From Marsupella aquatica (Eukaryota; Plantae; Marchantiophyta): 64,000 nucleotides of DNA. The stretch covers positions 6,720,234-6,784,233 of the forward strand of contig OZ316894.1 in the NCBI GenBank assembly GCA_973895155.1, given 5' to 3'. The notes below the pieces were generated by a model. It ran no database searches. It had not been told where the DNA came from and saw only the letters and a program-made list of their open reading frames with translations. The translations under genes were made by a program, and so were the position numbers. Below, in pieces: positions 9,380-59,414 of the stretch. How positions within the stretch are numbered: the stretch's first letter is position 1; each line of letters starts with the position of its first letter.

Positions 9380-9380
9380 A

Positions 9381-14258: not shown

Positions 14259-14270
14259 GCTCTGATACCA
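14259..14270 (-). promoter_or_regulatory. Primer binding site, tRNA-iMet
   Basis: TGGTATCAGAGC on the minus strand, 2 nt after the 5' LTR. Confidence 0.95.
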
Positions 14271-14272
14271 AT

Positions 14273-31813: not shown

Positions 31814-33536
31814 CTCTCATGACCTAAAACCTTTCCCCTGATATTCCTCGCGATCTCGCAAAGTGATTGAACTATTTCGTGGCGAATATTTCTCGGCGTA
31901 AATAGATAGACTACGGCTGATACACATGGCAAATTAAAATGACGAATTCAGGAGTAGCAATTCTTTTGCTCACTGATGAGCTAGCTTCAACCTGTAAAGT
32001 ATTCGCCATCATGTTACCACTTCTGGTTTTACTCTTCTGTCCTTATAATCACGTCTCGCTTGAGTTCAACCAAACCAGAATCTCCTCAAAATCAAGCACA
32101 GGTTGATTCTGCGCCATCCAAAGCCCCAAATTCGCTCTACTTCCCTTGCTTCAATTATGCGAGACAGAAGCAGCAATCATTAAAACAAATTCGCCCCTCA
32201 CTTCAGAAATGTTCCTCCGTCTGCAGCAAAAACAACCACAATCACTCAAACCTCCCGAAACTGGACACCAAGGGGAACAACACCTTTAAAGATAAATTCG
32301 CTCAAAGTTCCTACAGTACTTGATCTCTGTCCAACCGCAAAAAAGACCCAGACGGTACTAATCGTTCACAGGAACCATTTCGTCTTTGAAAATCCGGCAA
32401 ACCAGACACGAAGGACACACTAAGGCATTCATCAAAGTCTACACAACCGTGGCTCGAACTCTCACATGAACATTGAACCATGCTGTTCCCCTTCGTCCTC
32501 TCCAATTCACTTCGACACAAGCATCGTCTTGTCTCGTCTCTTCAATTCTTTGCGTCCTCTTGTCTCACTGCTCTCCGCTCTTCAATCCCATCTCGGAAGT
32601 CGAAAGCCTGCTGTTGGATGGGATGAGAAACCGAGGCCCAAGGTGTCTGGCCCTCTTACGGCCAAGGATGTGCGCTGCCCAGTTTTCCTAGGATGCAAGA
32701 AACCAGCAACGTCCCTGACAAGTTTCGACCTCTCGACCTGTCACGCAAGTATCTACAGGAGAACAGTCCGTGGAACAATACGAGTTCAGTGCCACTTGTC
32801 AAGCCAAGGTTACCCGCTGTCTTGCGGGGATGAGTGCCACTTGTCAACTACAGGATAATGGAGGTTTAAGAAGGAAAGGGGGGCTGTAACCCTGCTTCTG
32901 GAATGTCATAACAAGTTGTCAGGTGGCAACCTGAAAGCTTTTCCAAAAATCTAGGCACAGGATTATAGACTAGGACCCAGCCCGCCGCCGGGACGGCATG
33001 TCTAATTGGTTTATATTTTTGTCCAGAAAAGGGTTTATTGTTGTTTTAAAAGGTTACCTATTAATTTGTGGCCCAATGTGAGAACCTGAGCATGGATTAG
33101 AAAATGGTTACATAATTTTTGTCCAGAAAGGGTTAATTGTTTTTAGAAGGTTACCTGACTATAAATGTCTGGTCCAATATGTGAACTGGAGCATCGGGTT
33201 AGAAATGGTTACACTCTCATACGGTTTTGGAACTCATGGCTACTCTTCACATTTCTGCTTATGATTGTGTGGAGTGGGTGTCTTTGGGGCTATCAAAGGA
33301 AGGTAAGGTGGCGTCTCTGGTTCTGTCCTGGACAGTATCTTTTCTTATACATGTTTTGACACATGACTTTCCACCATTACAGTTTGCCCCGATATATATT
33401 TTCTCTCATAAATGTTTCAAATCAATGCAATTTGAATCAATAGATTTCTCAAGACTAAAGCAGTTCCATCAGCTTAATTGGAGGTGCAATTACCATCATG
33501 AGGCACAGGAGAATTAGGGAATTTTGGGGGCAATTA

Positions 33537-34081: not shown

Positions 34082-35830
34082 CTAGCTCAATACCCGTGCG
34101 TTGCACAAAAGATGTCGTCACGGCCAAGATGTCATTGAGAACAAAAGAGGTCATGTCGGCCAAGATGTCATGTCGGCCATGAATTGGTTGAGAAATAAGA
34201 TGTCGTGTCGACCAAGAGATTGTTGAGAAAAAAGTTGTATTGGCCTCATTCACAATTGGAGGACCCAAAAGGAACGTCACACTCAAAAGTGACCATAGTT
34301 TATTATGCTTTAGGATATCATTTGTAGGGTGTAATGAGATGACATAGAAAATTTGATGTACTATACTTAACAAACATCCTGTAGGTTGGTAACATTCATT
34401 AAACTATCTAGCATTTAAGACTTTGAAGATTTCCTTATATGTCCTTCAAAGATTGATAAAAGGACTTGTCATGCAACGGGTCACATCATTTCAGGACTAA
34501 AAAATACCCCCAAAAATGCATTTTAGACAATGAAATTTTACCAAAGCATGCATACTAATAGAATAATCTTATATTTTAAAACTCAAATATTGACACACAC
34601 TAAACCTTTATGTACAGGACAAAAATAATCAGTAATTTTGGCTTATTTAGGGCCAACAATAATAGGATCCCTTAAAACAATTAAAAACTTGATTTATCTA
34701 CATGGTGAGGTAGGTTACACCATGTAAAATAGTCTTGTGAAAAAATTAGAGTTAAATGTCTTCAGATAAAATCATGGTGAAGCTTTTTCCATGTTATAAA
34801 AGTCATTTTTCACTAAAAAAAACATGTTTTTGAGTCCTGAAAGTGGTTCCTGCGAGGTACACCCTGTTGTGAATGAGGCCTATTGGCCAAGAGGTCGTTG
34901 ACAAAAACCGATGTCGTGTCGGCCAAGATCTCATTGATAAAAAAGACGTCGTATCGGCCAAGAAGTCATTGAGACAAAGGATGTCGTGTTGGCAAATTAA
35001 GAAGTCGTTGAGAAAAAAGATGTCATGTTGGCCAAGATGTTGTTGAGAGAAAAGATGTTCTGTCGGGCAAGACATCACTGAGAAAAAAGATGTTGTGTCG
35101 GCCAAGACATCATTGAGAAAACAGATGTCGTGAGGAAAATAATTACCCGTGCATGGCACAAAAGATTGTGTGTTGCCCAAAATGTAAAAGATGTCAGTAT
35201 GTGAAAGATGGCGTTAAGAAAAAGTTGTCATTTTGCCAAACTAAGTTATTGTGAAGTAAATGATGTTATAAGTAAAAAGGTGTTGTTTCACCCAATATGT
35301 CCTTAATATGTGAAAGATAGCTCAATACCGTGCGTTGCACAAAAGATGTTGAATATTAAGAAAAAATATGTCGTTTTGCCAAAGATGTTGTCAACAAAAA
35401 AAGTGTCATGTTGCCAAAGATTTCGTTAAGAAAAAATATGTTGTGTTGCCAAAGATTTCGTTAAGTAAAAAGATGTCATGTTGCCAAAGATGTCGTTAAT
35501 ATGTGAAAGATGTTGTGAAGTAAGAAGATGTCATTAAGAACTATGATGCCGTGTTGCCAAAGGTGTCGTGAAGAAAAAATGTTCTTATGTGAAAAATGTT
35601 GTGAAGTAAAAAGATGTCAATGCGCCAAAGATGTCTTTATGTCTAAGATGTCGTCAGGTAAAAGATGATGTTTCACCAAAGATGTTATTAAGTATTTTTT
35701 GTTAAGTACAAAATGGTCGATAAGTAAAGAATGTCGTTAGACAAAGATGTAAGTTGTGAAGTAAAAGATGTTCTTAAGTACAATTGAAAATATTGCTAGT
35801 AAACCATGTTAAGTTAAGTAAAAAAGTTGT
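34082..35830 (-). mobile_element. Non-autonomous Helitron 3' region filled with degenerate short tandem repeats
   Basis: Minus strand reads GTGCAACGCACGGGTATTGAGCTAG|T (hairpin plus CTAG-T end) at 34106-34081; second copy near 35318-35340. Repeats of aaagatgtcgtgtcggccaagatgtcattgag. Confidence 0.75.
34242..34880. mobile_element. TIR element nested in the Helitron repeats, 4-bp TSD TATT
   Basis: GGCCTCATTCACAA ... TTGTGAATGAGGCC with tatt on both sides. Removing it restores a host repeat unit. Confidence 0.8.
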
Positions 35831-36178
35831 TAAGTTGTTGCCACTTTTTTGCCACCCCTTGCATCCTGAAGTCCCATTGATAACCCCAAACTTTTGGTTA
35901 CATTATTAAGCTTTTTGCTGAAAGTTACCATCATTGGCCGCTTACTTAAAACTTCTTCCTTAAAGTCGCCGCAATAGCTTAATTGGCGTTGTCTGCCCCG
36001 ATGTCGAGACCCCCTGGGGTAACGGCGCTGCTTGGCTGACTTTTCAATGGCCCTTTCCCTGCACTTGCATATATCTTGCAACCTCATCAGTAACCCCAAT
36101 TTTTTGGTTACTTTAAGCTTAGTTTGATTAAAGTTGACTGCGGCTGCTTTCTTGGCTTTGGCCGCCCCAACGCCAATT

Positions 36179-36293
36179 CCCCTTGAGGCAACGGCACAAC
36201 TCAGCCCACTTTTCAACAAAACAATTTGCCTACCCCTTGAGGCAACGGCACAACTCAGCCCACTTTTCAACAAAACAATTTGCCTACCCCTTG
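36179..36293. repeat. 54-bp tandem repeat, two copies
   Basis: ccccttgaggcaacggcacaactcagcccacttttcaacaaaacaatttgccta, twice. Confidence 0.9.
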
Positions 36294-39087
36294 CATGGAA
36301 CCCCTTTGGTAACCTCATCCAAGTTTACTCGGCTCCGTAGTCGCCAATACCATGCCCCCTTGGGATAGTGGTGTGGTTTGCAACACTTTCCAATATTGGA
36401 GGACCTGCCACCCCCAGACCAACTTTGGTCCAGATATTTTGGCCCCCACCCCATGCCTCTTCCTGTGGTAAACAAAGTGGCAAGACATAACAACAACTGA
36501 GGGGTTGTTGGGGAGTTGGAACCCAGGGCAAGATTGAGTTAGGGTTGGAGATGGAACTTTGGGGTCCCAGGTTTAAAACATTAATTTTTTGTTTTTAGCC
36601 AATGTGGTAAATGTCAGCCTCTCAAAGGTAGGAGATGCTAGGAGTATTCTTCCACAAATTTTCTTGAATTATATCATATTCGTCAGATATCCCTAGATTT
36701 ACATGCAACCGTTAGATTTTGGCAAATGAGATCCATGATTTGGTGGGAGAGTGACCAATGGTATGCAAAAAATCTAGCAAATTTTTGGCAAAAGTGGCGG
36801 AAAAAGTGGTGAACACATTTTGGGGAGGTAGAATTTGGCAAAAGCTTGCACCAAAAAACTACATTTATTGGATCGAGGCTAGGGCCAGGGTCGTCTCAGG
36901 AGTTATCATCGCTTCCTCTTCACTCTCCCTCTTCTGGCCATTCAGTAGTTGTTGTTGCTTAAAAGTTCTCATTAAATGCCAGGAGCCCTTATGAGCTCAC
37001 ATAGGCTTGGAATAGAGAACTTTAAACTCCAAAGGGAAAGAAGCTACGTTCCTCCCTTTCTCTTAAAAGTTGTACTCTGTTGGTACAACTGTACCTCTCT
37101 AGAGGACCTCTATCCTCTTTGTACCTTGTACCTGGGGTCCCAAGAGTAATGAGCTCATATGTCTCTATCTGAAGGTACAATAGTACCTGTCTTGTGCATC
37201 TTTGTGTACCTGGTTTGTGCACACCCGGCCCTGTACCAGGTTTTTTCACGTCCCTTTTTTTTCCCTTATTGGTTCCATATTTACAGGTTTCAATTATTAT
37301 CACCCAAAAGGACACTCCAAATTTGAATGACGACCATGCCATTTTTTGGCGCAACTGTGTATTCTAGTTTAGGATTATGGCTCACTTGGGTTTCCCCTTC
37401 CCCAAAAAACCCAATCATGGCTTGCCAGTCTATCTGTAGTTATCATTAATTTTAGACTGAATCAGCTAAAGTGGTCATTGGCAGAGGGTTCCTCTCCTAC
37501 TACATAACCCTCTAACACCATAATTAGATCTATCAAGACCCAATTACTCTCCATCTGAGTGACTGGTGGTGTCAATGAGATGTCTATCTCAACTTGTTCA
37601 GACCTTTCCGGTGTTCAGCCATGGGCGTGGTGGACCCATTCTAAATGTATATTGAGCTAGCAAAGCATCCATACTGAAATTAGCATAGTTACCACAGACC
37701 AACACTAAACATTTTTCCAATTCTAAGGTTACTCTCTTGAGAATGGGTCTCGAGTATGGTCACTCCTATTGAAATTAGTGTAAAAAAGACCAACACTAGA
37801 ATTTGCAAAACATTGTTCCATTTCTAAAATACAGGAGAATGGGTCTCCAAGTATGGGTTTGCTGATAAGATTAGCTGAGCAGGGGGAGCCAAGCAATGTT
37901 CTTGCCCATGGCTCATGCAATCTATAGGTGCAGACAATCCCCAATCTTTGTTTCGACCCTTCTTTTTGACAACTAAAGCTATTAGTCAAAAAATAAAAAG
38001 ATTAGAGTCATAGAAGGTTGTTTCAGTGGAAAAGAGAACTTCCACATAAAATCTAATTTCTATTTTCTAGTGCCACAATGCAAATGAGAAGCTAGTTTTT
38101 GGAAGTTTGTTGATAAATATTCATATTTAGTCTAGCGTGGTCTACATCTATATTTTATTGCCTTTCTACATGGCTTCACAATTGCATTTAAGCAGCTTAC
38201 ACATTATGTCTTCATTGATATAATGCTTGACATTGATTCTATGATATTTCTGCACACCTGATAACATGATCGTAATGATTGCATGGCTATAACAACACCA
38301 CAACAACTGCATGGATACAGCAACAATATGGCAACGCAACTACAATTGTACAAACCTGTAGGCCATTTAGACCAAGTGCATGGCTACAACTATCACATGA
38401 CCTTAACCACAACATAGCCACAATGACACATAAAAAGTCTCAATCAGTTTGTGGATCCCTGCACAGACCCCATCCTCCCATCTCTCTATAGCAATTCTTC
38501 AATTCAATGCAATGGGAGAAAAGAACTTACCTGGAAATATTTAAGTGTTGTATCAAAGTTATGTGATGTTTTACATGACAATAATTAAAAATATGATCTC
38601 CATATTAGTGCTCATTGCGCTTCATCACTATATTCATTAAAACTGTACTTTTAAAAGTCCATAAGATGAACCCTAAAGTTAATTTTTTTCAGGCCAAATT
38701 CTATTAAAGCATTCCCCAAAGCTAATTTTTTTCAGCCCAAATATACACTTTTGAACGCCCAAAATTTTGTTTTTTTTCACCCAAATGTTTAATAATAACT
38801 TAAATCATATATTCTAATTAATTTAAAAATTAGAGTAAATTTAATTTAGTCCAAAAATCAGAGGCCAATACCACTCAGACCATCTATAAATTAAAAAATA
38901 TAGATGGTCATAAATCAAGGGTCAAAATGAGATTGACCCACTATATAATTATTAAATTGTCCAGTCCAGGGAGAGAGCCTCACACTATGCATATCCTAAT
39001 TATTACTTTATCCTACATGTTCAAAACATATCCTTTGACATAATATGAATGTACAATTCAGGGTAGGCACTAGAGCAACCCTATCTC

Positions 39088-40127
39088 CTAATGATCAAGA
39101 CAAAACTCATTTGAACAAGAAAGTCTGCTTCTTGATTTATCATAGCGGATATCACGGTTGCAAGTATCTCTCGCATGGTGGTTCTTAAACTTATTGGTGA
39201 GATCCCTAGTTCTGAGAACTTTCCAAATAAAATGCCTTCTATTTTGTCTATGAGGACCAGAATAGTTGTCTCCAAGTATTACGTTTGCAGTTTCTTCGAT
39301 CTCATCCGTGGTCCACGTCTCCAGTGGTGGGTAATGCTGCACCTCGTTCTTTCCGTCCCAAGGAATCTCTTCAGGAGTCACATCCAAGATGGTTCCAAAC
39401 TCTTTATGGATACAACGACAATCTCCCCACTTCTGTTCCAAAAGAGCATAGATGGCAGCATGATCCTCCTTGCTTGTTAATAAATTGAAAACAGACCGCT
39501 TTGGATTGTTGACAGTGATATAATGTTGAACGCAGTAAGCCTTTCTCAATTTGCAAAGATACAGCCATAATATCTCGGGCAAAAAAATGTCATTTGAAGC
39601 TGTGTGAGTAAATGGATTTGGAAACAATCCATTCACGTCATAATTCAAAAATGCCTTCAATGGAGAATCATCAATAAGAACTGTATTAGAAGCATCATAT
39701 TTTTCTGGAAAACAGTCCCAAATGGTTTGCAAATTCTTCAGAAGTAAATTGGCCTTCCCATTTGTTATATCTGGCCTTTGGATGCAACTATCAAAGGTAT
39801 CTTCTTGAGTAAAGACAAACTTGAACTTCTGTCGCTCCTCCTCAGTGAAAATCAACTCCATTAAGTCCATTGTTTTTGGCCTCCTTGCACAGGTCCAAAT
39901 TGCGACGTCAAAAACCATGAAAGCTGCATATAGAAATTCGTGGAGGTATGGGCGCTCCACATACATGAAATTAAACCCTCCACGTCTCCCCCAGTGCACA
40001 CCACGTAAACTTGTCTGATTTCGCCATGGTCCTGAGCTTTTGGTCTTAATGCAATCCCAACAAATCTTGTTAAGGTCAAGAACCAAGAGCTTTCGCCGGA
40101 TCGGAGAGTGTAGTATTGGAGTGAATT
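39088..40127 (-). CDS. FCP1/SCP (NIF)-type HAD phosphatase-like domain (last exon)
   Basis: RRKLLVLDLNK, ERPYLHEFL...FDVAIWT, KNLQTIW and YDASNTVLIDDSPLKAFLN. Confidence 0.85.
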
Positions 40128-40481
40128 CTGGAAACATTAAAATAAGCCCTTAGTCAATGCGACTCAAAGTTTAAACAATTACTACGGAGGAAAACTCTCA
40201 AAATTTGAAATCAAACAAACTTTGTTATAGCATTTGAAGTAGAGAGGAACGACCCTGGGGCGACCCTCCTATAAAAACATTAATTACATTCACTTGCCAT
40301 TTTTTAGATCCAAAGTATACCTGGGTCAAACCCTTCCTCCATAGCAACACTTTCCGAGGGAATGCCAACAAAATCCTTTGAGGAAGGAGATTCTACGACG
40401 GAACTTTGGTCTGTAAAAAAGTATATTATTACAAAGATAAAGCTTAGATTGTCATTAAAATACCAAGAACCAAAGAAAGGG

Positions 40482-42671
40482 CTAATAATTTCCAATGCTA
40501 AAATGCCCAAATTCATCTATTGTTTGATCACCTAGAACACTCTGTATCTCGGAATTGATACCACTGGGAAGTTGCTCTTCAAAGGATGGGGGTGCAAAAA
40601 CTAGGCTCAGTCTCAAGTTCAGTTTTTTGTAATCTGATTTTGCCATTATCTTTGGAGCATCGTCTAGTGATTCTATCATTCCAACCTTTGGTCCATTTCT
40701 CCATATAAAATGAGTTGCAGGACGGACTATTTTCATATATCCAGTCCTGCCGATCTCGGATCCAGAATTTTGTGAAAATGATAATACTACGGGGCTTCCT
40801 GTAGAAGCACTTGTAAAAACCAATTTAGTCTTTGATGAGCAATATAGAGGAGACAGGGGAGGATTTGAAGCACCTGCCTTCTCTTCTTCATTTGCAGCGG
40901 TCTCAGGTACTTGACGATCATCCTCCTTTGCAAGCACAATGTCTGACATTTCTCCCAATTCTACTACGTCAATATTGCCTAGACCATCTGCGGTTGCCTT
41001 CCAATGTGCGTCCGATGTGGACGATGTAAGATCTGGGTCTGACTGGTGCATCCAATTCTCTACACCGGCAAAGGGATTTCTTGGTGGGTTGCCCTCAGGT
41101 CGACCCACAACATCGGCCAACCCCACACCAAAGTAGGGAATACCTACCACTTGTGTTCCACGTTCATGATCCAAATTTTGGGTGACCCTGTCGTCTGTGT
41201 CGTGACCCAATTCTCCTTCCTCAATATCATCTTCGCCCTGGTCTACGCCTTCTTTGGTGCCAACATGCTCGGAAACCCCATCGCGGGCTCTACCAAATTT
41301 GGAACCGCCCATCCGATCACTCATTATGGAAGGAACTTTCTCGTAGAGAACCCTTCCATATGCCTGAGTGAAATCATATTCATCCTCAGTGTCTGAATAC
41401 GCAAAGCATTCTCTGAAACACAACAATGACACCTTCATAACCTGTCCTCCCGAGAAAAAGTCAAGTATAGTCTCCCCTTCAGCCGAAAAAAATTCAATAA
41501 TACTCTGCAACATACATTTTGGCTTAGCGTGAATATTCACAAAGCCACCTCTACTTCCCACCATCTCAAACATGGGAGCCTTTCGTAAGAAATCTCCAAT
41601 GTGAAATGCCGAAGTTGACTCAGTCTCTGTCTCCTTACTTGTCTTACTCTTATTCTTATCTCGCTTCTCCGTCTTGTCTTCCACTTGGAAATCAGGGTTG
41701 ATCGTCGAATTGTAAGAAAATTGGCAATTAAATCCAGGCCTGAACACTTGGTTCCAATCAAATTTCTCCTCAGTGGTGATTCCTGCAAAGATTATCTCCT
41801 CCATACCACAACTGAAAAGTAAGCCCTCTGGAACTCGTGTATCACTCCGTCGATAGCTCCCATAGTCAACGTGGATGTCGATTCCCTTTTCATGTTGCAA
41901 TTTCCTAAGGGCACTCAAAATGTTTGCAGCAAGTGGCCCCGGATGCACAGTCATGACAACAACAATTGTTGGATTTCTTGGAAGATCCACAATGTATTGC
42001 AGTAATGCAATAATTTCAGCATCGGTCCAAACATGTTGTCGGAGCCTACTGAAGTCAACAATGGCAAAAGGACACAAAGGCAAAGGCTCTTGTAGCATTT
42101 CCGGCACGGTCGTCTTCATCAAATTATCACTATAAAATGTCAAGAAAGGCTCCGTGCGAGAACGACCAATCCCACCAAATTCTTTACAATACAACCCATC
42201 TCGTCTGACCATCAGACCTTGTGGAAAACTCTCCTTGACCACATTCTTCTTCAATGAATTGTTGAGGTAAACCTCACCCGCTGCTCTCCTCAATTTTTTC
42301 ATCTCAAGCTCAGATTTCAAGGAAGGCAACAATATCACCAGAGACTCCCAAGATGTGCCAACAGGAAACTTTTCACGATACTTTTCCACGAAATAGCCAA
42401 TAATGACTGTTATCAATTTGGACATTATCTTGATTGTAAGGGCCAAGTCTCCCATTGCGACAAGCTCTGATTTGTTGGTGATATCCTTCTTCAGCAAGAC
42501 TCGCTCCTCTTCAACGTCCTTCAAGATCTCAATTATCTGTTTGCTACTAATCTCTCCTTCAAAGCATCGAAAGGTACCGGAGTGATCAATTTTGGGGGTC
42601 TTGGCCCTCCATACCCACCAGCCCCGTCTTGGAGCTTCCCACTCAACCATTTTGCACACACGTTCCGCCAT
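40482..42671 (-). CDS. N6-adenine/N4-cytosine DNA methyltransferase-like domain (beta-class order) plus acidic linker
   Basis: VNIHAKPKCMLQSIIEFFSAEGETILDFFSGG matches HPxQKP..L...I...S.EGD.VLD.FxGxG. Upstream AIVDFS sits at the DPPY position; MEEIIFAG is also present. Confidence 0.7.
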   Translation of the reverse strand: MAERVCKMVEWEAPRRGWWVWRAKTPKIDHSGTFRCFEGEISSKQIIEILKDVEEERVLLKKDITNKSELVAMGDLALTIKIMSKLITVIIGYFVEKYREKFPVGTSWESLVILLPSLKSELEMKKLRRAAGEVYLNNSLKKNVVKESFPQGLMVRRDGLYCKEFGGIGRSRTEPFLTFYSDNLMKTTVPEMLQEPLPLCPFAIVDFSRLRQHVWTDAEIIALLQYIVDLPRNPTIVVVMTVHPGPLAANILSALRKLQHEKGIDIHVDYGSYRRSDTRVPEGLLFSCGMEEIIFAGITTEEKFDWNQVFRPGFNCQFSYNSTINPDFQVEDKTEKRDKNKSKTSKETETESTSAFHIGDFLRKAPMFEMVGSRGGFVNIHAKPKCMLQSIIEFFSAEGETILDFFSGGQVMKVSLLCFRECFAYSDTEDEYDFTQAYGRVLYEKVPSIMSDRMGGSKFGRARDGVSEHVGTKEGVDQGEDDIEEGELGHDTDDRVTQNLDHERGTQVVGIPYFGVGLADVVGRPEGNPPRNPFAGVENWMHQSDPDLTSSTSDAHWKATADGLGNIDVVELGEMSDIVLAKEDDRQVPETAANEEEKAGASNPPLSPLYCSSKTKLVFTSASTGSPVVLSFSQNSGSEIGRTGYMKIVRPATHFIWRNGPKVGMIESLDDAPKIMAKSDYKKLNLRLSLVFAPPSFEEQLPSGINSEIQSVLGDQTIDEFGHFSIGNY

Positions 42672-42849
42672 AATTCAAAGAGCTCATCTTCGGCAAAAAG
42701 TAACCAATAAATGCTCTTTAGGCTTGACTTCCCCATTGTAACCTTTGCCAGGGCAAACCAATCCTGCATATCCAATGGACTTGACATTAGTTTCAGGGTA
42801 CAATGCATATGTTAGAAAATTTATACCTATGTTTGAGACAGGCTAAGCC

Positions 42850-43029
42850 GTCTCGCCCCAAGGGCGTGGCGAACCTCTACATCTAACCGCAATTGACTGA
42901 AATGGAACTAGGGAATTATTCTTAGAGAGACTAGTCTAGGTTGCCTCGCCCTGAGTGCGAGGCAAACATTTGCTTTAATCTTCTAACCAAGGAAAACAAG
43001 AAAAGGTAGCCTCGCCCTTGGGGCGAGGC
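42850..43029. repeat. Three intronic copies of the palindrome GCCTCGCCC-NNN-GGGCGAGGC
   Basis: Copies start at 42850, 42943 and 43009. Confidence 0.85.
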
Positions 43030-43097
43030 AAACCTCTACCACTGACAATATTTAAACAAAGCGGATCAAGAATAGTTTGCGTTGCTCCAACATGTAC

Positions 43098-43640
43098 CTG
43101 ATAGTTTTTCCTGTCTGTATTTTGATTGGTCCCAATCCCTGGATGCGGCGGTTTCCCGCACTCCTCAAACTGCCTTCGTGCATGAACAATAGTCTCTAAA
43201 AAACAAGACTTAAATTGCATAGTATCATTGACAGCATTCGATAAACTTGAATGCTCAACCAAAATTGTCTTCGGAGTGAGGTCAGATAGGATCCTTGATT
43301 TCCTATACTTTAGTTTGTTGGCAAGATCTGTCAGCTTGGCGTCAGTCTCAGCCCACCTTTGGATCCATTGGGCAGCTCTTGCAGAATGCTGGCCACTGAT
43401 GGCAAGGAATTGGATCTCATGCTTCTTTCCTATCCTGAGGTGTGTTGTCATAATGAAGCAACTGTTTAGTGCTCTCGCGATACGGAATCAAATCTACAAC
43501 TTGTGGTTCCTGTCCAGGGTTTTTCATCATAGACTTTGATATCTCCATTGCATGCAAAAGATTGAACATTCGATATACAAAAATGGCCGATGGCGGAATA
43601 ATACTTTTTACAGGAATATCAAAAGTATAATACTGCTCAA
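43098..43640 (-). CDS. ParB/sulfiredoxin-like domain (frameshift near 43440)
   Basis: FDIPVKSIIPP...YRMFNLLHAMEISKSM...VVDLIP / FLAISGQHSARAA...YRKSRILSD...SSLSN; GQH corresponds to the ParB GxxR/GxH loop. Confidence 0.6.
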
Positions 43641-44664
43641 TATTACGCAAAACCTCTTGGCCTTTGAGCACATCATCTTCTTTGGGTCCTTCTGTCGGAC
43701 ACTGTATATCATCCTCTGGATGCAAGACAAAGTTTGAAGTCGACGCTGACATATATTGGTTTTGATTTTGCAACCTTTGCCTTCTTTGTCTGCTTTTTTT
43801 GGGGGCCCTCATCATCTTCATTTTTTTTAGCCATCTTCTTACGGAGTGAACTCCCAGATTGTTTCTCTTGTTGAACAACCGGCTCTCAAAGCTTTCATTT
43901 CTTCTCTGTCTTTGATTGCGCGCTTCTTTCCACTGTCTTCTTTCTCTCCTTTGCCTTATGCTTTGCTTCTTTTTTCTTCATCTCTGAAATCCACGTCCGG
44001 CACGCGGCCTCTTGAAACTCTGGACAAAAAATGAAAGTCTTGTTGATTGCTTGCTCATATGAAAAATGTGCCTTCTCAATCATCCTTTGAACTATCCAAG
44101 TAGACGGAGGGTCCACACTGTCCGCATTGTCATGCATGTGCTTCTTTGCGTAGAGAAATCCAAACACTAGGTCAACTCCACTTATTTGAGAACGCATCTT
44201 CTCAAACATCTGATCAATTGCTACTTCATCTGGGAAGAATCCCATATCAGCTACGCTTATCTCCAATCGAGCCATCCACTCAACATTCAGTAAAGTCAAG
44301 TAGAGTTTTTGGCACCAGAAGTCTCATCCACTGAGATTTCTCATTGGACTCAACAATAATCGTTGCATTGCGGTTGTTGTCCGTGTTCACAAGGACGACT
44401 GGACCTAGAGTAACAATTGTCTTGCGGTCATTCAATTGACTTGTGAGGCCCTTGAAACAAATCAAGAGACTGCCTTCCGCCGACACCCCAACTCTAGTGC
44501 CCATCTAAATCCTGAAGTATCTTGGTCAGGGAAAACAAAGTCCTTGATATCCTCGTCCATAATATTTAACTCCGGCTTCTCAAGATTTTTTCTGGTAAGA
44601 AACATTGAAAACAAAATGGTCAACATCATATTTTTAACATTGACATGTGGAAAACTTTCAAGGT

Positions 44665-45164
44665 GCCTCGCCCTTGGGGCGAGGCGACAAATAGAAGATT
44701 GCAAAATCTTCTTTGCTCCTAGTGCAATTAGCCCTGCCACCTCATCCAAGCAATCAAACATTATTTAGGAATGCAAACGACATCGCCTCGCCCCAAGGGC
44801 GAGGCAACTTCTGGGAAAGCAAACAACATTTAGGAATGCAGACAACATCGCAACTTCTGGGAAAGCAGACAACATTTAGGAATGCAGAGGACATCGCTTC
44901 GCCCCAAGGGCGAGGCAACTTCTGGGAATGCAGACAACATTTAGGAATGCAAATAACATCGCCTCGCCCCAAGGGCGAGGCAACTTCTGGGAATGCAGAC
45001 TACATTTTAGGAATGCAGACGACATCGCCTCGCCCCAAGAGCGAGGCAAAAAATAGAATATAGCTAAAGATCCTTTATTAAAGTAATATACAAGGTCCAA
45101 TACGCCTTTGAAGCAACAAAAAATCTAGAATGAAGTAGACGTCGCCTCGACCTTGGGGCGAGGC
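44665..45164. repeat. Array of about 65-bp units carrying the 21-bp palindrome GCCTCGCCC-CAA-GGGCGAGGC
   Basis: Palindromes start at 44665, 44785, 44896, 44961, 45027 and 45144; the tandem units span about 44757-45047. Confidence 0.92.
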
Positions 45165-45764
45165 GACTGCAAAGGAATATAGAAATTTTCCTAATAAGAA
45201 GTTTGAAATCCAAATTAAAGTAAAGTTTCCTCGCCCTAAGAAGTTGAAGTAGGTGGTGCCTGATCCACTCGTGCCCGATCTGTTGGTGTCCACTCGTGTG
45301 CTGGGTAATGTGTGGGCTTTTTGCCTCTCAAACTGAGTATAGACCTCCCACAATCCATTTTTTGGTTCATTGTTATTTAGACAGTGATTGGTACGGTCAC
45401 TGTGTGACGGGTACCCCGTCACGGGAAGTCACACATAACTGGTTGCAAAGGCCGATACCTTGTTAATAGTCAATGTAAATAAGCCATTTTTTAATTTTTA
45501 GTTAATTCCGTCATTATAGGTTGATGATGCCCCAGGTGACTTTATATTCTTTCTCTCATAATAGTTCTAAGATTTGCGGCGACCTAAGTGGGCAAATATT
45601 TTGGGACCTTGAAACTAGCCAGGACCAGCCCCATAGGACTTACCGTTTTGCTTCAAGAGCTATTGTTGAGACCCCCATTGCAAAGTCAGGAGAGGGGGGG
45701 GTTTTTTTTTAAATAAATCCCTCCTCAGGAGGGCGAGTCCCATTAGTGGCCGTCCGAGAGAAAG

Positions 45765-46139
45765 AGGGGCTGCCTCGCGAGCCCATAGGGCTGCGTGCCC
45801 GGGCGATTAATGGGGCTCCGCGAGCTGAAGGGGCTGCCTCGCGAGCCCATAGGGCTGCGTGCCCGGGCAATTAATGAGGCTCCGCGAGCTGAAGGAGCGC
45901 AAGCGAGCGGGGGGGGGGGGGAGTTAAAGGGCCTCCCGCGAGCTGGGAGGATCACGCGAGCGGGGGGGAGTTAAAGGGCCTCCCGCGAGCTGGGAGGATC
46001 ACGCGAGCGGGGGGGAGTTAAAGGGCCTCCCGCGAGCTGGGAGGATCACGCGAGCGGGGGGGAGTTAAAGGGCCTCCCGCGAGCTGGGAGGATCACGCGA
46101 GCGGGGGGGAGTTGAAGGGCCTCCCGCGAGCCGGGAGGA
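45765..46139. repeat. GC-rich tandem arrays: 2 x 64 bp, then about 4.5 x 47 bp with G7 runs
   Basis: 64-bp units at 45765 and 45829. 47-bp unit gggcctcccgcgagctgggaggatcacgcgagcgggggggagttaaa at 45929, 45976, 46023, 46070 and 46117. Confidence 0.93.
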
Positions 46140-46562
46140 ATGGCCGCGCGCCCTGCATAGGGCCGCGCGCAGGAGGACGCAAGGGTAAGGCCCGAGAAAT
46201 GGGCCGGGGCGCATGGCGAAGGCGCCAGGAGTTTTTTCGGTTCTATTTTTTTTTCCTTCCTTTTTCTTTCCCTCTTCCTTTTGCACGACCCTCTCATTGC
46301 CGAAAGCAAAAACGGGGTTCTTCTCTCTCTTGCCGGAAGCTCTCTCCAGATTCTAATTATTTTTGAAGCTCTCTCTTTCATGGTGGATTAGTGGGGCTTG
46401 CTGGCGTCATTCTTCCAGGCATTAGTGGCGGCCGCACGGAGTAGTGACGGGAAATTGAGAGAATTTAAGTGATCGGGCTACGGGGGCTGTTTCGGGCCAG
46501 GGAATTGACATTGCCACGGGTGACGGGATTGGTGATTGAGAAATTGATTTCGGGATGCATGG

Positions 46563-48419
46563 ATGCTAGATCAACCAGAGTTTAGTGCGTCACGCATTCG
46601 GAGATACAAGGCTGCTTACCGTGACTACGTGGAGACTCGGATTACACGGGAAAGGGAAGAGAGAGAAGTTATGATGAGCACGGGATTGGCAGCGGGTTCC
46701 TCACCGGTGGGTAGGAAGATTTTTCGTCGAATTTATCCCAAGACCTCCACCAAGGTGATGGAGGATTGTCGGAACATTTTCCAAGCCACCGGGCTTACAG
46801 AATTCATGAAGGTGGAGATTACCATCCCTTCAGGGAAGAGCTGGGACATTGAGGCCGGGATGGAGTTCCGAACGGAGGGAATCTACTTTGAATGTCTCAA
46901 ACGTGTAGTGCCCCATGTGGAGTTGGCTAAGCTATTGTTTCTTGAGAATCAGAAATTCTCATTCACACCTCGGAATATCAGGGGAGAACTCACGTTGAAA
47001 ATGGTGGCCACTTGGGTGACCAATCCTACCTCCACCACCGCCATCCCTCTTTCTGCTGTCAAGGATGTTGAGTATAAGGGCTTCCTGGCCAAGGTGCATC
47101 AACGGGTTCTTGGCAACGTGCAATCCGGAGTGCTGAATGAGGAGCATTTCGTGGTAGCTATGGACATCAAGAACTACCCAGCCCATGTGTACGGATGGTG
47201 GTGCTACGGATTGAAGAAGCTATTGGCCGCTGAGCCCGGGAGTGTGAAACCAGGTGGGGCTGTACATTTGATGGGGTCATTTGTATTGGCCAGGGCAGAA
47301 GGGTTGATTGGTTCTCCGGGGCATGAAGACACGGGATCATCTCTCACCACGGAGATCCGGAGTATTGCCACTACCGTTTTAGGGAAGCTCACGGAGGAAT
47401 CATTGTCTGCTGGTGGGGAGGATAATAGAGAAGAAGAGAACCAGGAGGATGATTGCACATTGGAGTGGCTTGAATCACTCGTGGGAGATCCGAAACAGCC
47501 TCTGGAATACAACATTCCGGATGTTTACTTGGCAGAGCTACGGGATTTCAGAGAGGGAGTCCACGAGGGACTCAAGCTAGTCCACGCATTGAGGGAGTCT
47601 CTCAAGCACGCCACAGTCAAAGTAGAGACGTTAGAGCAGAGCATCCTGTCACTGAAGGAGGTGATCAAGACCAAGGAGCAGACCATTCATGAGAAGGTCA
47701 GGCACATCAATGCAGCTCACGTAGAGATCACCAACTTGAAGGGAGCTTTGTCCACCAAGGCCAAGGAAGCAGAAGAAGTAGGAGCGTTGAGGCAAGCATT
47801 GGCCAAAGAGAAGCAAAATTCTGGAGAAGTGATGGAGTGGAGGAACCAGGTGGGAGCACTACGGAGTCAGGTGGCAGCCTTTGAGACACGAGCGAAGAGA
47901 AGTGAGGCCCTGAGTCTAGGGAAACGGAAGAGTCCCGGCACACCTGGCTCCACACTTTCCCCGGATGTGATCTCCCAAGCTATCGAGATGGTGGTGAAGG
48001 AGGTTAGTGGGAAGTATGGACCCTTGTTGGATGGAGCCAAGAAGAGTCAGGAGAAGAGTAAGAGCTTGGAGAAGAAGCTCCGGGAGGTACGGAAATCGTT
48101 ACGGGAGGCTCAGGTCAGTACGGGGATGCCACCCAGGTCTGTCACCCCCGGGACTCCCATGGCCACGGGGCAAGTTCTACCGTTGGAGTTGCGGTCCGGA
48201 GAAGAGGCTACCCTCTGGAAGGACACAATTGGTGAGGGGTACATCAAGGCGTGGCAGGCCTTGGCTGCTTTGAGGAAGCGCGGGAGCAGCAGCACTAAGA
48301 GTACTCCGTCGAAGAAGAAGAAAAGTACGGTGGCACTCACTCCCGTGAGTGATGAGGAGGAGGACCACTCACGGGGCACAAGTCCGGGCACCGAGAGCGA
48401 AGAAGAAGAGGAGGATTAG
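46563..48419 (+). CDS. Retrotransposon accessory (extra) ORF, 618 aa, coiled-coil C-terminal half, function unknown
   Basis: Intact long ORF ending about 50 bp before the PPT/LTR; heptad-rich LRESLKHATVKVETLEQSILSLKEVIKTKEQ; basic PSKKKKS followed by an acidic tail. Confidence 0.75.
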   Translation: MLDQPEFSASRIRRYKAAYRDYVETRITREREEREVMMSTGLAAGSSPVGRKIFRRIYPKTSTKVMEDCRNIFQATGLTEFMKVEITIPSGKSWDIEAGMEFRTEGIYFECLKRVVPHVELAKLLFLENQKFSFTPRNIRGELTLKMVATWVTNPTSTTAIPLSAVKDVEYKGFLAKVHQRVLGNVQSGVLNEEHFVVAMDIKNYPAHVYGWWCYGLKKLLAAEPGSVKPGGAVHLMGSFVLARAEGLIGSPGHEDTGSSLTTEIRSIATTVLGKLTEESLSAGGEDNREEENQEDDCTLEWLESLVGDPKQPLEYNIPDVYLAELRDFREGVHEGLKLVHALRESLKHATVKVETLEQSILSLKEVIKTKEQTIHEKVRHINAAHVEITNLKGALSTKAKEAEEVGALRQALAKEKQNSGEVMEWRNQVGALRSQVAAFETRAKRSEALSLGKRKSPGTPGSTLSPDVISQAIEMVVKEVSGKYGPLLDGAKKSQEKSKSLEKKLREVRKSLREAQVSTGMPPRSVTPGTPMATGQVLPLELRSGEEATLWKDTIGEGYIKAWQALAALRKRGSSSTKSTPSKKKKSTVALTPVSDEEEDHSRGTSPGTESEEEEED

Positions 48420-48473
48420 ATAGGCGTACGGACGTGGGTGTACGGCCTCCAGATTTCCAACATTTTAGTGGGG

Positions 48474-49530
48474 GGTCACTCATGGGCTTGTTGGGATGAG
48501 CTCGCGGAGCTGATTCCAACAAGAGGCGGCGCTCCTCAAACGGAGCCAGGATGAGCAAGTTATGGCCTGGAGAACTTATGTTTTTGCGGTACGGAAACGG
48601 CCATAACTCAGGCGTCTGAAGTCCGTTGAGGGAGCGACTTAGTGATTCGGAAGCAGGAAAAGAAGAGCTATCCAGGGGTGAGCTCAGGTGTGCACTTGGA
48701 AGGGCACCTAGTTTCGGCCATTTTGGGGTGCCTCTCACTTTCAGGGTTCACGTGTACTGTTGGGGCGCCGTCGAAGGCACCGTCGGCCCCCTTGTTTTGG
48801 GTTTAGGGTTTTAGCAGCATGTGTGTGCCGCATGCTCCTCTTCAGTTTAAGGATTTCTCTTAGTGCAAGGTTTTAGCGGCGCCGCTAGGGTAGCCGCCAC
48901 CGTTGTGACCCTGTGAGGGGTGCTTTGGTGTGATTTTTCAGTATTTAGGGGGATAGCCCCGAAGTAGTTAGGGGGACTCAGTGTGAAGTTAGCAAGGAGG
49001 GATAGAGTGGAGCCTGAGGAGTTTGAAAGCGTGTTCAGAGTAGTGAGGGGGAGCCATACTCATTGTCCGGAGAGGCAGGAGTTGAGTAGACGGCAGGAGG
49101 CCGGGTTACTCATGCAATGTGTATCGTTTTTCCCAAGAGATATGGATCTGTACATTTGACTTGATGGGCTTTTGTTGTGTGTTCCTTCTCCCTTTTTCGC
49201 TTTCCGAATTGTGTTCTCCCGTTCTATGATTTGAAGAAACTTGCTTGGTTTGAGTCGGCCTTGTGAGTAGGGGTGGTGACAGCACTCTTTGGGTGACTCC
49301 GAGTGAAGGTGTAGTGGGGTAGTCGGCAGGACTTGATCAAAAGCTGTGGGGTGAGGGTAGTCGGTAGACTTGATCAAAACCTACATTTCCGGGAGCGGAA
49401 ACCAAAATACTCATCCTGGTGTGAAAAGAATCCAAATAACGTCCCTCCACGACCCCGTAATACGATACCAACGGTTTAAGCGAAGAAAAGTGCGGTTTGC
49501 ACGTATTAACCGTTGGAGAGGCAAGTGACA
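48474..49530 (+). repeat. Putative gypsy LTR (about 1.06 kb)
   Basis: Follows a purine tract; termini (g)GTCACT ... AGTGACA are inverted, with the 5' T apparently mutated; ends 20 nt before the PBS. Confidence 0.55.
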
Positions 49531-49550
49531 TAAGTGTGGTCTTTTGTTTT

Positions 49551-49568
49551 TGGCGCCGCTGCCGGGGA
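49551..49568 (+). promoter_or_regulatory. Primer binding site, tRNA-Asp (Athila type)
   Basis: TGGCGCCGCTGCCGGGGA, one mismatch to TGGCGCCGTTGCCGGGGA. Confidence 0.9.
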
Positions 49569-49785
49569 ATCCTTCTTCTTGTTTGACGACACGAAGGAGG
49601 GGAGCTACGTCTATTGGGAGTTCAAACCTATCAACCACAACGCAACTTGCGACGGTTGATACGTGAGAAGTTTGTTGGTTACTTTGTTATTGTACGTCAA
49701 CCACAACGCATCGTGCGACGGTTGATGTTTACAAATATTGCTTTCTGAGACATTGGTGTAAGTTTGGAATGCAGGTCTCAATGGG

Positions 49786-51771
49786 ATGCCGAGAGGGAGA
49801 AGGGGAGGTAGAGGAAGTCCCCAACACACACGTACCCCAAGATCAGAGCTAGAAGGGGGGCCCTCTTGGATTGGGACCAGACGACGAGTTGCTGCCGAAG
49901 AACGCTTACGGCTTGCAGAAGAGAGGAGGTTGCCACTGGTGCTGGAAGAACAAGTTGGTGTGCAACAGGAAGAGGCTCAACGTAATGAGGCCATATGCCC
50001 AGACGAAGAGCCAGACATAGATCACGAGCGAGAAGAAGGAGAGCCCTTTGTGTTGGTGCAGTCTGAGTTACAAAATCTGATCCCAGAGCTCACTGCATTG
50101 CCACAAATCATCTCACACCTATCATCGGTGCTGTTACCGGTGGCCCAACAAGCGCCATTACCACCTGTGTTGATACAGGCACCGGCTGCACCGATGGCAG
50201 CTGCACAACGTACCCGTGTTCAGTACGTACCCTTCAAGGGGAGACCAAAGGATGATCCAGACGAATGGATTGAGGAGTTTGAAGGGATTGCCGAAGCTAA
50301 TGGGGAGTCTGCACATAAGCTCACTATCATTCCTGGAATGATGAGAGGGGAGGCAGGTCCATGGTTCATTTCGTTGTTGGCCAACGTGAAAGCTGATTGG
50401 GCTCTGTTCAAGCAAGCCTTCTTGAAGGAGTTCAGATCCATAGGAGTGGAGGCCACCTCACTATTAAAGGTGGGCCAACTCAGGATGAAGAAGAAGGAGT
50501 CATTACGGAGGTTTTTGCAAAGGTTCCAAAAGCTGGTACGTCGGATCCAAGCCCGTACCGATGATGCTATGCGTCAAGCCTGGTTTGTGGCTGCCCTACC
50601 AAGCAAGATGGGGTTCTTTGTACGTCAAGCCAAGCCAACCACATTGGCTGAAGCTATTGCAGCAGCGGAGTCATACACCGCAGCTGATGCCACAAGCAAG
50701 CGTTGCCGAAGAAAGAAGCTGAAGCCGGTTGACAGTTCCTCCAGTGAGGAGTCGAGTGGATCTGATTCAGATAGTAGTGATGAATCTGAGGATTCTGAGA
50801 GTACTACAGAGTCAGACACTACGGAGTCAGAAGCTGAAAGACGAAGGAGGAAGAAGAAGAAGTTGTCAAAGAAAGTCAAGAAGTCCTCTCACCGTGAAGT
50901 GATACTACCCACGGTGGCCGTTACACCATTGTCTACGGCAAGACGCCTGAAGGAGCAAGAGGCCAGATATGATGAGCTGACGGAGCAAATGAAAGCGTTG
51001 AAAGTACATTTTGCCGGACTCAAACCTGAGAGGAGAAAAGTTCCGGTGGAGAGAGCCAATGTGTGGTGCACCAAGTGCATGAAGTTTGGTCATGCCCCGA
51101 AGGAGTGCCCAGCGGGAGAACCAGCCAAGGTTTTCCAAGTACGGGAGGAGGATGTTGAGGGGGCAAGCTACTCAAATCCTTCATATGCAGCGGAAGGGCC
51201 AATAGAGTACTTCATGGAGGAGCCACCAGAGGCCAACGTGTATAGTGTACAACCTCTCAACCCGGGACCACGGAGCATTCATGGAGTTTCAACAAACGCC
51301 GGAGCACCCGCATACTCCAACTATCCCAACGCTAACCCAGGGAATCGACCACCGTACCCTGGAGTGAGGAAGATCCCTATTTGTTACAATTGTAGAGTGG
51401 CGGGCCACTACGCTAATGTGTGCCCAGAGCCCACCCGTCAAGGCAATGGAGATTTTGCCCGGCTGTGTCAACTATGCAAGGGGGAGGGTCATCTTGCACC
51501 ACACTGCCCAACCTTGGAGGCGTTCAAGGCTCAACCGATTGGGGCACAAGAGAAGAAGGGGCCGCCACCTCCTCTGAAAGAAGCTAGCGTCAACTTTCTC
51601 ACCACGGAAGCAGTCGACACCCCTCTAATCACTAGAAGAGAAGAAACCGTAGTGAACATTCCCAAGCAAAGGATGACCACCATAACGGAGGAGGTGGTAC
51701 CGCTAGTCGTTGTAGTATCTCCAGTTGTTGAGATACCGGTGGTTGTTGACTCTTTGCTGAACATTACTTAA
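49786..51771 (+). CDS. gag: Ty3/gypsy Gag with three CCHC zinc knuckles, truncated before protease
   Basis: PFKGRPKDDPDEWIEEF, MRGEAGPWF, WALFKQAFLKEF, ESLRRFLQRF, KPTTLAEAI; knuckles CTKCMKFGHAPKEC, CYNCRVAGHYANVC and CQLCKGEGHLAPHC. Confidence 0.9.
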   Translation: MPRGRRGGRGSPQHTRTPRSELEGGPSWIGTRRRVAAEERLRLAEERRLPLVLEEQVGVQQEEAQRNEAICPDEEPDIDHEREEGEPFVLVQSELQNLIPELTALPQIISHLSSVLLPVAQQAPLPPVLIQAPAAPMAAAQRTRVQYVPFKGRPKDDPDEWIEEFEGIAEANGESAHKLTIIPGMMRGEAGPWFISLLANVKADWALFKQAFLKEFRSIGVEATSLLKVGQLRMKKKESLRRFLQRFQKLVRRIQARTDDAMRQAWFVAALPSKMGFFVRQAKPTTLAEAIAAAESYTAADATSKRCRRKKLKPVDSSSSEESSGSDSDSSDESEDSESTTESDTTESEAERRRRKKKKLSKKVKKSSHREVILPTVAVTPLSTARRLKEQEARYDELTEQMKALKVHFAGLKPERRKVPVERANVWCTKCMKFGHAPKECPAGEPAKVFQVREEDVEGASYSNPSYAAEGPIEYFMEEPPEANVYSVQPLNPGPRSIHGVSTNAGAPAYSNYPNANPGNRPPYPGVRKIPICYNCRVAGHYANVCPEPTRQGNGDFARLCQLCKGEGHLAPHCPTLEAFKAQPIGAQEKKGPPPPLKEASVNFLTTEAVDTPLITRREETVVNIPKQRMTTITEEVVPLVVVVSPVVEIPVVVDSLLNIT

Positions 51772-58464: not shown

Positions 58465-59414
58465 GGTTGCGATTGGGCCCTTCCTGCCGCATATTCCTGG
58501 AGTAGCTTCCAAGACAGTTCGACAAGTTTGGTCTGTCTCTCAGAAGTTACTTGGACCCAAACGGCTCTGCATATTTCACTTCGTTCGTTTGTTTCTCGCT
58601 GCGGTCTTTGCTCGGATTCGTCGAACTACTTCAAACAGTTCGGAAATCGTCTACTGTTGAGTCTTGCTGACCTCGAGCCATGACCGAATTTCAGCAAAGA
58701 GTCTAGCTTGCCCGTGGTAGTTGATTCAAAGTATATCAATTAACTTCAAACAACGCAAGTACGGACCTTGCGTTGACAGGAACCCATGTGACTGGCTTAC
58801 TTGTTCCTTGGGTTCATTTCCGGGCATTTTTCCCCTTGAGTGCTGCCCTGTAATGACGCAGGGCAGGGCATGTTAGTCTGCACCAGAACCAAACAGGAAG
58901 GAGAACTCAGCAGAAGGTTGACTGTACGTTCTGAACACAACTCTAGCTAGTTATGTATTAAGCTACGAACTTGAGAGACCTCAGCTTCAAGAAGTTCACA
59001 AGATTGGAAACTTGAAAACAATGGTAGCATCTTCATTGTCCGACTCTATATCGCACCAGAAATGTATGCTGTGATACTCAGCAAATTGTATTCTGGATCG
59101 TCTGCGGCAGTTGCAACTTTGTGAGAGCAGCACCTTGTCTGGAGCGGATTAGCAGTCGACTCAGAACAAGGAGACCAAGACTTCTCCGCCTCATTTCCTC
59201 CCACGATCGTAAATTTCTTCATTTAGATTCTGAATTTCTGGCGAACACTGGATATGATCGAAACTAGCTTACTCACACTGAAGTACAGATTATTTATTTC
59301 TCCCATACTCAAAACGATTTTAGAACTATATCGATTGCGCGTCTAGACTCACCATGATAGTAGTCAATCGATCCGTCCATCTGCTGCCTGCTCGTCTTTG
59401 GGTGCTCCTGAATC

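Follow-up and report, generated by a model that had tools for sequence, protein, structure and literature searches.

A decayed repeated-element gene with methyltransferase-like, NIF and candidate ParB-like parts in the liverwort Marsupella aquatica

Introduction

What a gene with ParB-like, bacterial-type methyltransferase (MTase) and phosphatase-like parts is doing in a liverwort genome is the question raised by a 64,000-nucleotide window of Marsupella aquatica (contig OZ316894.1 of assembly GCA_973895155.1, positions 6,720,234-6,784,233; the window is the whole stretch analysed and all coordinates below are positions within it). A first-pass annotation, made from the letters alone, had joined minus-strand frames into one spliced fusion gene and taken it for a virus- or mobile-element-derived effector of chromatin or transcription. 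Overall the gene is real and conserved, it is a variation on a known kind of system, the transposon accessory chromatin genes, and the window holds a dead copy; it is apparently undescribed in land plants. The explanation we consider best, although our judgement of it is evenly balanced, is that the gene would encode an accessory protein of a liverwort DNA transposon, a candidate binder of the element's own 21-bp palindromes, which would prevent silencing of the element.

A conserved gene carried in a repeated element

Contigs of four public runs (X1, X2, X3 and X5, four of the six listed) were aligned to 35800-45750; X1-X3 include flank contigs identical to the window, may be its source and so are not independent of it. 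The comparison gives a repeat unit, 38624-45402, present in many near-identical copies and adjoining single-copy flank. In X1 the long contigs over the gene have depths of 455-515 against 17.4 for the flank contig 37347-38652, and this step of about 27-fold, depth not being copy number, is a rough sign of many near-identical copies only. The left boundary is sharp, in that the X1 single-copy contig stops at 38652, the depth step lies at 38624-38627, and an X3 joint and the loose ends of six X5 contigs start at 38624-38627, keeping the AT there and not the C at 38623. To the right, other copies diverge beyond 45402, where Gypsy-type sequence starts. The TGA stops at 43897 and 43888 read differently in all four runs, two to four of them depart from the window at the indels 44492, 43751, 43703 and 42578, and one X1 contig spans 43293-44622. 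Differences between window and contigs are skewed to A/T in the window (113 versus 55 for X1, p 9e-6; 106/61 for X2, 163/110 for X3 and 150/117 for X5), which fits a methylated, decaying copy. The window copy, with its private lesions, is a decayed copy of a gene carried in a repeated element, and the gene is very probably mobile-element cargo, an origin suggested earlier and now backed by the repetition and the sharp left end.

Intact relatives had been expected elsewhere and do exist. With the MTase-like frame as query seven proteins matched among 7,997 candidates, and a profile search gave 228 relatives at E<=0.001, of which 150 are listed. A look-up of 27 gave a species name for 13, three from Calypogeia fissa and ten from Riccia sorocarpa, with several per genome, and all named relatives are liverwort gene models. 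The ENA protein P0172 (1009 residues) is a single open frame with ParB-like, helical and MTase-like parts, a linker and a C-terminal domain. In the Riccia models P0107, P0116 and P0148 the ParB-like part is joined to the MTase part, in P0069, P0129 and P0133 (three of the 37 scanned) the MTase is fused to a NIF domain, and two further Riccia models terminate in the NIF start motif. The NIF exon as query found ten relatives among 567 candidates, at 31-67% identity and nine of them close, and a single metagenome locus, L001, was found among 143 candidates, its NIF domain 33% identical.

Layout of the gene

About ten minus-strand frames, running from 44560 to 39088, hold the motifs quoted by the first-pass annotation, and these frames, motifs and frameshifts were all found where it had placed them, as were the 90-bp phase-1 exon 40410-40321, the intron 40320-40128 and the acceptor at 40411. 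The features of the element, with the basis of most of them, are as follows.

38624-38665, plus strand: left end of the repeat, from contig ends; A/TC (Helitron-type 5' end) or AT plus CACTA (EnSpm/CMCT-type)
38683-38786, plus strand: three subterminal 17-bp direct repeats
39088-40127, minus strand: last exon, NIF/HAD (DLNK, WTC, K, DDSP) and C-terminal Cys/His cluster, from the open frame, Pfam NIF and relatives
40128-40320, minus strand: intron, phase 1 (CAG/GTATAC ... CCAG/AA), from sequence and the same position and phase in L001
40321-40410, minus strand: 90-bp phase 1-1 mini-exon, Ser/Pro-rich, from sequence and a counterpart in L001
40411-40873, minus strand: proposed alternative intron (donor CAG/GTGCTT at 40873, acceptor 40411), suggested by sequence conservation
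40482-40873, minus strand: small conserved C-terminal domain of the proposed isoform A, closed by E-[YFH]-G-S-F and then a stop, from relatives and the P0172 model
40874-41339, minus strand: acidic linker, unconserved and predicted disordered, from alignment and the P0172 model
41340-42150, minus strand: beta-class N6/N4 amino-methyltransferase fold, motif IV DFSR and motif I DFFSGG, from the P0172 fold mapped onto the window
42151-42763, minus strand: conserved helical region between the ParB-like and MTase parts, frameshift near 42580-42600, from alignment and the P0172 model
42764-43097, minus strand: intron 1, phase 0, with three 21-bp palindromes (42850, 42943, 43009), from Calypogeia fissa models
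43098-43650, minus strand: ParB-like/DUF3723-like domain (FDIPVKSI ... ISGQHS), frameshift near 43430, from identity to P0172/P0043 and language-model features
43651-44560, minus strand: putative N-terminal region, broken by several frameshifts and by TGA stops at 43897 and 43888 and including a Lys-rich stretch, from sequence
44665-45164, no strand: upstream of the gene, six 21-bp palindromes GCCTCGCCC-N3-GGGCGAGGC, some of this within 46/65/111-bp tandem repeats
45403-51771, plus strand: Gypsy-type sequence, nested or adjoining, which interrupts the element outside the gene, from copy divergence and Retrotrans_gag (E 3.1e-9) at 49762-51771

The intron 43097-42764 is absent from the first list of introns, and the Calypogeia fissa models P0002 and P0043 read straight through it. 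At the same position P0172 and P0027 (ENA) read across and P0032 (51% identical) looks intron-like; P0172 and P0027 may be transcripts or intron-less copies. Since the first 270 codons (44560-43750) had no protein match among the relatives compared, the start codon is putative. Of the three domain families proposed, Pfam found NIF (E 2.9e-15, frame 39088-40149) and, below the cut-off, a weak N6_N4_Mtase (E 0.0024, frame 40482-42674), and no ParB family.

A methyltransferase fold that has probably lost catalysis

That the middle part has a bacterial-type MTase fold is borne out by a structure search with the P0172 model, which is confident at residues 220-750 and 937-985, and by profile comparison. 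Foldseek and VIA put beta-class amino-methyltransferases first (M.RsrI at E 2e-6), the top 11 rows are all beta-class MTases, and superposition on CcrM gives Z 17.8 and a root-mean-square deviation of 3.7 over 223 aligned residues; the P0172 model has the circularly permuted Rossmann fold with motif IV ahead of motif I. In HHalign against a phage methylase (L002) the DPPY of the latter falls on DFAR, with probability 94.7. Motif IV reads DFSR in the window, and [DSN]PP[YFW] occurs in none of 52 aligned relatives, the Asp being retained in 44 of the 52. The S-adenosylmethionine (SAM)-binding motif I is FxGxG; here 37 of 66 rows read DFFSGG or DIFSGG, one residue shorter than the M.RsrI motif. 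With the fold kept and xPPY lost, catalysis has probably gone, and we regard the MTase as inactive with a good deal of confidence.

The earlier comparison with an active DNA methylase like MpDN4MT1 of Marchantia or the rotifer N4CMT therefore fails on the missing xPPY motif. M.RsrI, CcrM, M.PvuII, MpDN4MT1 and the Adineta N4CMT resemble the liverwort protein in fold and motif order; it is 8-15% identical to them, lacks DPPY/SPPY, and is encoded by a multi-copy, element-borne gene and not by a host gene. It is improbable, to our mind, that the MTase is active despite an altered motif IV, placing 4mC or 6mA in element DNA or RNA. The fully retained fold, the motif IV Asp and the DFFSGG/DIFSGG motif I would suit such an activity, and against it stand the Pro-Pro-aromatic missing from all 52 rows, the shortened motif I and, as far as the available text goes, the retention of TSPPY by MpDN4MT1 (bioRxiv 10.1101/2021.02.12.428880).

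The fold also bears on whether the gene is an endogenous virus relic or a domesticated host gene. Phage and giant-virus MTases are among its fold neighbours, at 8-13% identity, one of them being labelled ParB/Sulfiredoxin. However, of 96 viral candidate stretches only 2 gave a match, which spanned 62 residues of the MTase motif, and L002 is a plain phage methylase; spliceosomal introns, a NIF domain with kin in a plant family and many near-identical, decaying copies also speak against either origin. We found no support for a viral one, and consider a virus relic or a domesticated gene very improbable indeed.

A NIF domain of plant type and a likely zinc finger

The last exon had been read as an FCP1/SCP domain; the NIF/HAD domain is real, and its type is a different one. 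The HAD-IIID profile scores E 1.5e-13 (HAD-IIID/UBLCP1 being best) against E 0.009 for FCP1_euk. Motif I of FCP1/SCP enzymes is DxDx[TV]; the element clade has DLNK, DLNG or DCNG there. The domain is 35% identical to a plant family (R1flu_003202/R1sor_004664), with which, as with UBLCP1, it has in common the DxN motif I and the DDSP motif IV, and because DxN is common to this host family it need not mean decay. The element NIF differs in having WTC where the plant DxN family has WSS and in carrying a C-terminal Cys/His cluster, a likely zinc finger judging by the conservation of C330, C345 and C350 downstream of NIF. The Riccia fusion NIFs, with DVEG and DV[HN]P motifs, are unlike the plant DxN family. 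In a tree of 32 NIF domains, which carries a long-branch warning, a split (97/92) separates the ten element and three Riccia fusion rows from 19 host-like ones.

The N-terminal domain

The product of 43098..43650 is 39-55% identical to P0172 and P0043, and its language-model features (Atlas) fall nearest DUF3723 (0.95) and ParB_N (0.91, ParB_N making up 35% of that cluster). ParB-type proteins have a nucleotide-binding arginine in GxxR; the motif in the window and in six of six relatives ends HS and not HR (SGQHS). Going by the language-model features, the N-terminal part may be a ParB-type DNA-binding domain. In contrast to the closeness of the feature clusters, DUF3723 (PF12520), known from fungal Starship elements, gave no Pfam sequence match to the liverwort protein, and no MTase or NIF fusion of it was seen. 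DUF3723 is a conserved cargo gene of giant Starship elements whose function is unknown, as far as the available text goes (PMC9156397).

Splicing and two proposed C-termini

How the NIF exon is joined to the rest is the part of the first model that changed most. Its donor at 40531 is probably wrong, since its use would split a conserved C-terminal motif with a stop at its end: conserved protein lies behind the donor, with E721 and G723 invariant in nine of nine rows, and E-[YFH]-G after the donor codon is kept in all 25 relatives reaching the end, the stop coming 3-22 residues on (median 7). This count covers 25 hand-picked proteins out of 33 matches, all selected by a profile that contains the motif and several of them close kin, with the near-copies P0008-P0011 and P0173 and the early-ending P0033, P0047, P0143 and P0171 excluded; P0180 was not one of these. 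A single four-part protein through 40531 has in its favour that the join is in frame, stop-free and GT-AG with a 121-bp intron, and that the donor codon is Gly in 19 of the 25 relatives. In the other six that codon is E or K, so that a phase-1 GT is impossible, and L001 has no GT there; these and the loss of the invariant E721/G723 motif leave the 40531 model little chance.

The conserved motif and stop mean that one product ends at 40482, and its C-terminal domain, which has no usable Atlas match, has a core at a predicted local distance difference test (pLDDT) score of about 96 in the P0172 model. In L001, which has one homopolymer frameshift, the C-terminal domain, stop and AG are followed by an 87-bp phase 1-1 exon that lacks an in-frame Met, then by an intron and the NIF exon. 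As this is the order of the window, it looks as if the NIF part depends on an exon upstream of it. Intron-like frame text would be the counterpart of 40128..40320 in P0017, P0019 and P0020.

A better donor, at 40873, would supply that exon. It sits where the linker meets the C-terminal domain, and G601 is invariant there in nine of nine rows within an otherwise free linker; AG[AGP] occurs at its counterpart in 19 of 28 rows (hand-picked and including the window) against a frequency of 0.14 in other linker windows, and at the protein level the frames of P0168 and P0169 start with intron-like text just ahead of the same Gly. The join through 40873 is likewise in frame, and on rough weights from general knowledge this donor scores 3.1, against 1.4 for 40531 and 3.5 for the mini-exon donor. 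Its use gives MTase-linker-NIF, the layout of the Riccia models. On these sequence grounds alternative splicing at 40873 is rather likely to be what joins the NIF part. No joint of the proposed splice appears among the matches listed for the contigs of the four runs, which are evidence neither way.

Palindromes, ends and a proposed mechanism

The 21-bp palindrome, which contains CG sites, occurs nine times in the 64 kb, six times upstream of the gene and three times in intron 1, with none elsewhere and none in 20 shuffles. One X3 contig joins the left end of the element (38624) to 43033 in intron 1, beside a palindrome, and is possibly a copy inserted into another copy of the same family.

As to the kind of element, a Helitron 5' end is A/TC and makes no target duplication, and the hallmarks of Helitrons are a RepHel gene and a hairpin-CTRR 3' end. 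The left end here is C-AT-CACTAT. The A at 38624 and the T at 38625 are retained in the window and in other insertions (a consensus of loose ends only), and an AT kept without the first C fits either a Helitron A/TC end or an AT target that has received an EnSpm-type end. A hairpin at the left end is not significant (z 0.23), and two loose-end motifs from the contigs are absent in the window. The assignment leans slightly to Helitron, CMCT being the lesser possibility and some other superfamily having a small chance. An assignment to PlavakaB from the CATCA at 38623 was dropped because the first C is not shared by the other insertions; PlavakaB ends are given as 5'-CATCA with a 2-3 bp target duplication in what is available of the source (PMC12730594).

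In the mechanism we propose, two splice forms would share the ParB-like, helical and MTase-like domains and the linker. Form A, of about 1250 residues, would end in the small C-terminal domain at the stop 40482, and form B, of about 1490 residues, would pass from the donor 40873 to the mini-exon, NIF and zinc finger. A dimer would use the ParB-like and helical part to dock on the CG-containing palindromes of promoter and intron 1. The MTase fold would act as a DNA- or SAM-binding scaffold, as in the inactive METTL14, and the NIF form would contact a phosphorylated host protein of chromatin or transcription. The net result would be local shielding from methylation, so that the element stays transcribed. 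By analogy, self-binding at the palindromes has to us somewhat better than an even chance; anti-silencing as its purpose, a reasonable guess when first put forward, is a little less probable than its opposite.

A number of results weigh against this reading. ParB was not matched as a family by Pfam, PHROG or NCBIfam sequence profiles, nor was its fold obtained in two predictions, in which pLDDT is mostly <50 there (the second model as a whole has a mean of 39). In the scanned frames of the window (82 in one scan) no transposase or RepHel was found, the copy ends at 45402, and no matching right end with a target duplication was found in the window, so that mobility rests on repetition and end sequence. 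The linkage of NIF to the rest, asserted by the first-pass annotation, stands as linkage and as an MTase-NIF fusion in Riccia, those fusions being automatic gene models; no relative with all three domains was seen among those compared. A search of long NIF proteins gave 18 matches among 2,393 candidates, all of the host plant family and with no element fusion (a weak search, which also missed the Riccia fusions), and neither NIF search gave a Calypogeia fissa model. The intron side at 40873 is weak (GTGCTT), AGAS there could be a protein motif rather than a splice site, and the DNA of the site is known from the window only, L001 stopping short of it. Finally, in both window and L001 no stop interrupts the mini-exon frame as far back as an ATG overlapping the end of the upstream frame, which allows a separate NIF protein.

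Two separate proteins, ParB-MTase to 40482 and NIF-zinc finger from the ATG 40516 or a mini-exon Met, perhaps both from a two-cistron RNA, are a minority possibility to be taken seriously. The stop conserved in 25 of 25 relatives suits them, as do the overlapping ATG frame itself (70 codons in the window, an ATGA overlap in L001) and MTase-like and NIF relatives that are separate frames on ENA contigs of equal length (5992 and 5883 bases), the length suggesting a shared contig. However the stretches ahead of the mini-exon are 73% A+T, end in a pyrimidine tract and CAG and are unlike as protein between window and L001, the mini-exon Met is absent from L001, and the Riccia models are fused.

The placing of the palindromes can also be read in another way. 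TnpA-type proteins pair or compact copies via subterminal repeats, and the protein might be such a structural helper of transposition, pairing or compacting copies through the palindromes, or an autoregulator of its own promoter. The palindromes at the gene's own promoter and first intron would agree with this, as would DUF3723, the Starship cargo, in the nearest Atlas clusters, as far as the available text on that cargo goes (PMC9156397). The palindromes lie 4-6.5 kb from the sole known end, though, and the chromatin-type domains (MTase fold and NIF) are left unexplained, and this role is to us likewise a minority possibility.

Comparison with known systems

No description of the architecture in liverworts was found in the literature searched, most subscription journals and Repbase lying outside that search. 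The kind of system is nonetheless known from red-algal Plavaka transposons, in which, as far as the available text shows, PAG3 with a ParB-like domain adjoins inverted-repeat arrays, PAG2 has PF01555, self-binding is proposed by the authors, and the cassette reportedly moves among Plavaka, Mutator, Zisupton and Fanzor-encoding elements (bioRxiv 10.1101/2025.02.11.637652). The likeness, as described, lies in transposon-borne PF01555 and ParB-like domains and in inverted-repeat arrays by the ParB gene. PAG, on the same partial view, spreads these domains over two genes, one joining ParB to a 2OG oxygenase and the other joining the methylase to SET, whereas the liverwort ParB-like and MTase parts form one protein, partnered by NIF and a zinc finger in a land-plant host. 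Plavaka is also known from streptophyte algae and moss, according to the accessible part of another report (PMC13519894).

In Arabidopsis VANDAL elements VANC21 binds tandem-repeat motifs in the introns and upstream regions of its own element, as given in the available part of the source (PMC5735166). VANC is likewise an accessory gene, with candidate motifs gathered in its own introns and upstream tandem repeats, and the liverwort palindromes are similarly clustered in the element's non-coding parts; VANC motifs, from what is available, are 8-9 bp in one orientation, in contrast to the 21-bp palindromes here, and no shared domains were seen. The activity of VANC is proven, that of the liverwort protein proposed. 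ParB-linked MTases of phage origin have entered eukaryotes, and the MTase domains of DIRS1 elements are described as likely inactive, in the accessible part of that account (PMC4738411); these phage ParB-methylase loci and DIRS1 belong to other clades and hosts (chlorophytes, chytrids, haptophytes) and show no NIF fusion there (PMC4738411). The gene has features that set it outside both the active N4C/N6A methylases and the FCP1/SCP phosphatases, and would, by analogy, be a PAG/VANC-type accessory system in its manner of working.

Other features of the window

Next to the element, the Gypsy-type sequence 45403-51771 contains GC-rich 47- and 64-bp tandem repeats (45765-46139), gag without pol, and at 46548-48419 an open 623-residue frame with no significant Pfam family and a coiled-coil second half, upstream of about 49551, near which is what we take to be a primer-binding-like site. 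It is either an unusually long long terminal repeat (LTR) holding a gene, or a chimera. A Copia-type element at 8905-14780, its LTR with ten 18-bp tandem units, is probably a very recent insertion, since its direct repeats, spaced 5368 bases, are identical and its frames for gag (12844-13854) and pol (9571-12843) are long and open. Pieces of a Harbinger-type DDE_Tnp_4 transposase (E 1.8e-7 and 6.6e-5) and an adjoining frame lie at 82-2259. A second high-depth repeat lies left of the single-copy flank (35800-37460 and 34086-35703), by arrays of 35-bp and 17-bp units. Long uninterrupted host-like frames are at 3634-5514, 29339-31816 and 57652-58539, one of which presumably encodes an ATP-citrate lyase, the others matching seipin (E 1.7e-42) and a PIN-like membrane transporter (E 9.2e-26). 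A 161-residue frame at 52879-53364 matches the TFIIA alpha/beta N-terminus below the cut-off (E 3.2e-5) and is possibly a fragment or retrocopy.

Conclusions

Bacterial-type methylase folds in liverworts now extend beyond MpDN4MT1, and a Pfam match of this sort in a liverwort annotation can stem from transposon cargo that lacks the catalytic motif. The liverwort element offers a second testable land-plant case, for which both a protein and a 21-bp site are at hand as candidates, in a group (Marchantia, Riccia) where transformation is routine. In its fullest form, which we put forward tentatively and think doubtful as a whole, the proposal is that large transposons of at least the leafy and complex thalloid liverwort lineages may encode a sequence-specific anti-silencing factor built from three pseudo-enzymes (ParB, a phage-type methylase and a captured plant HAD phosphatase), which would act on parS-like palindromes of its own promoter and intron with its effector end switched by alternative splicing, as a second VANC-like system. 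If true, it would be an independent VANC-like system and a land-plant counterpart of the red-algal PAG cassette.

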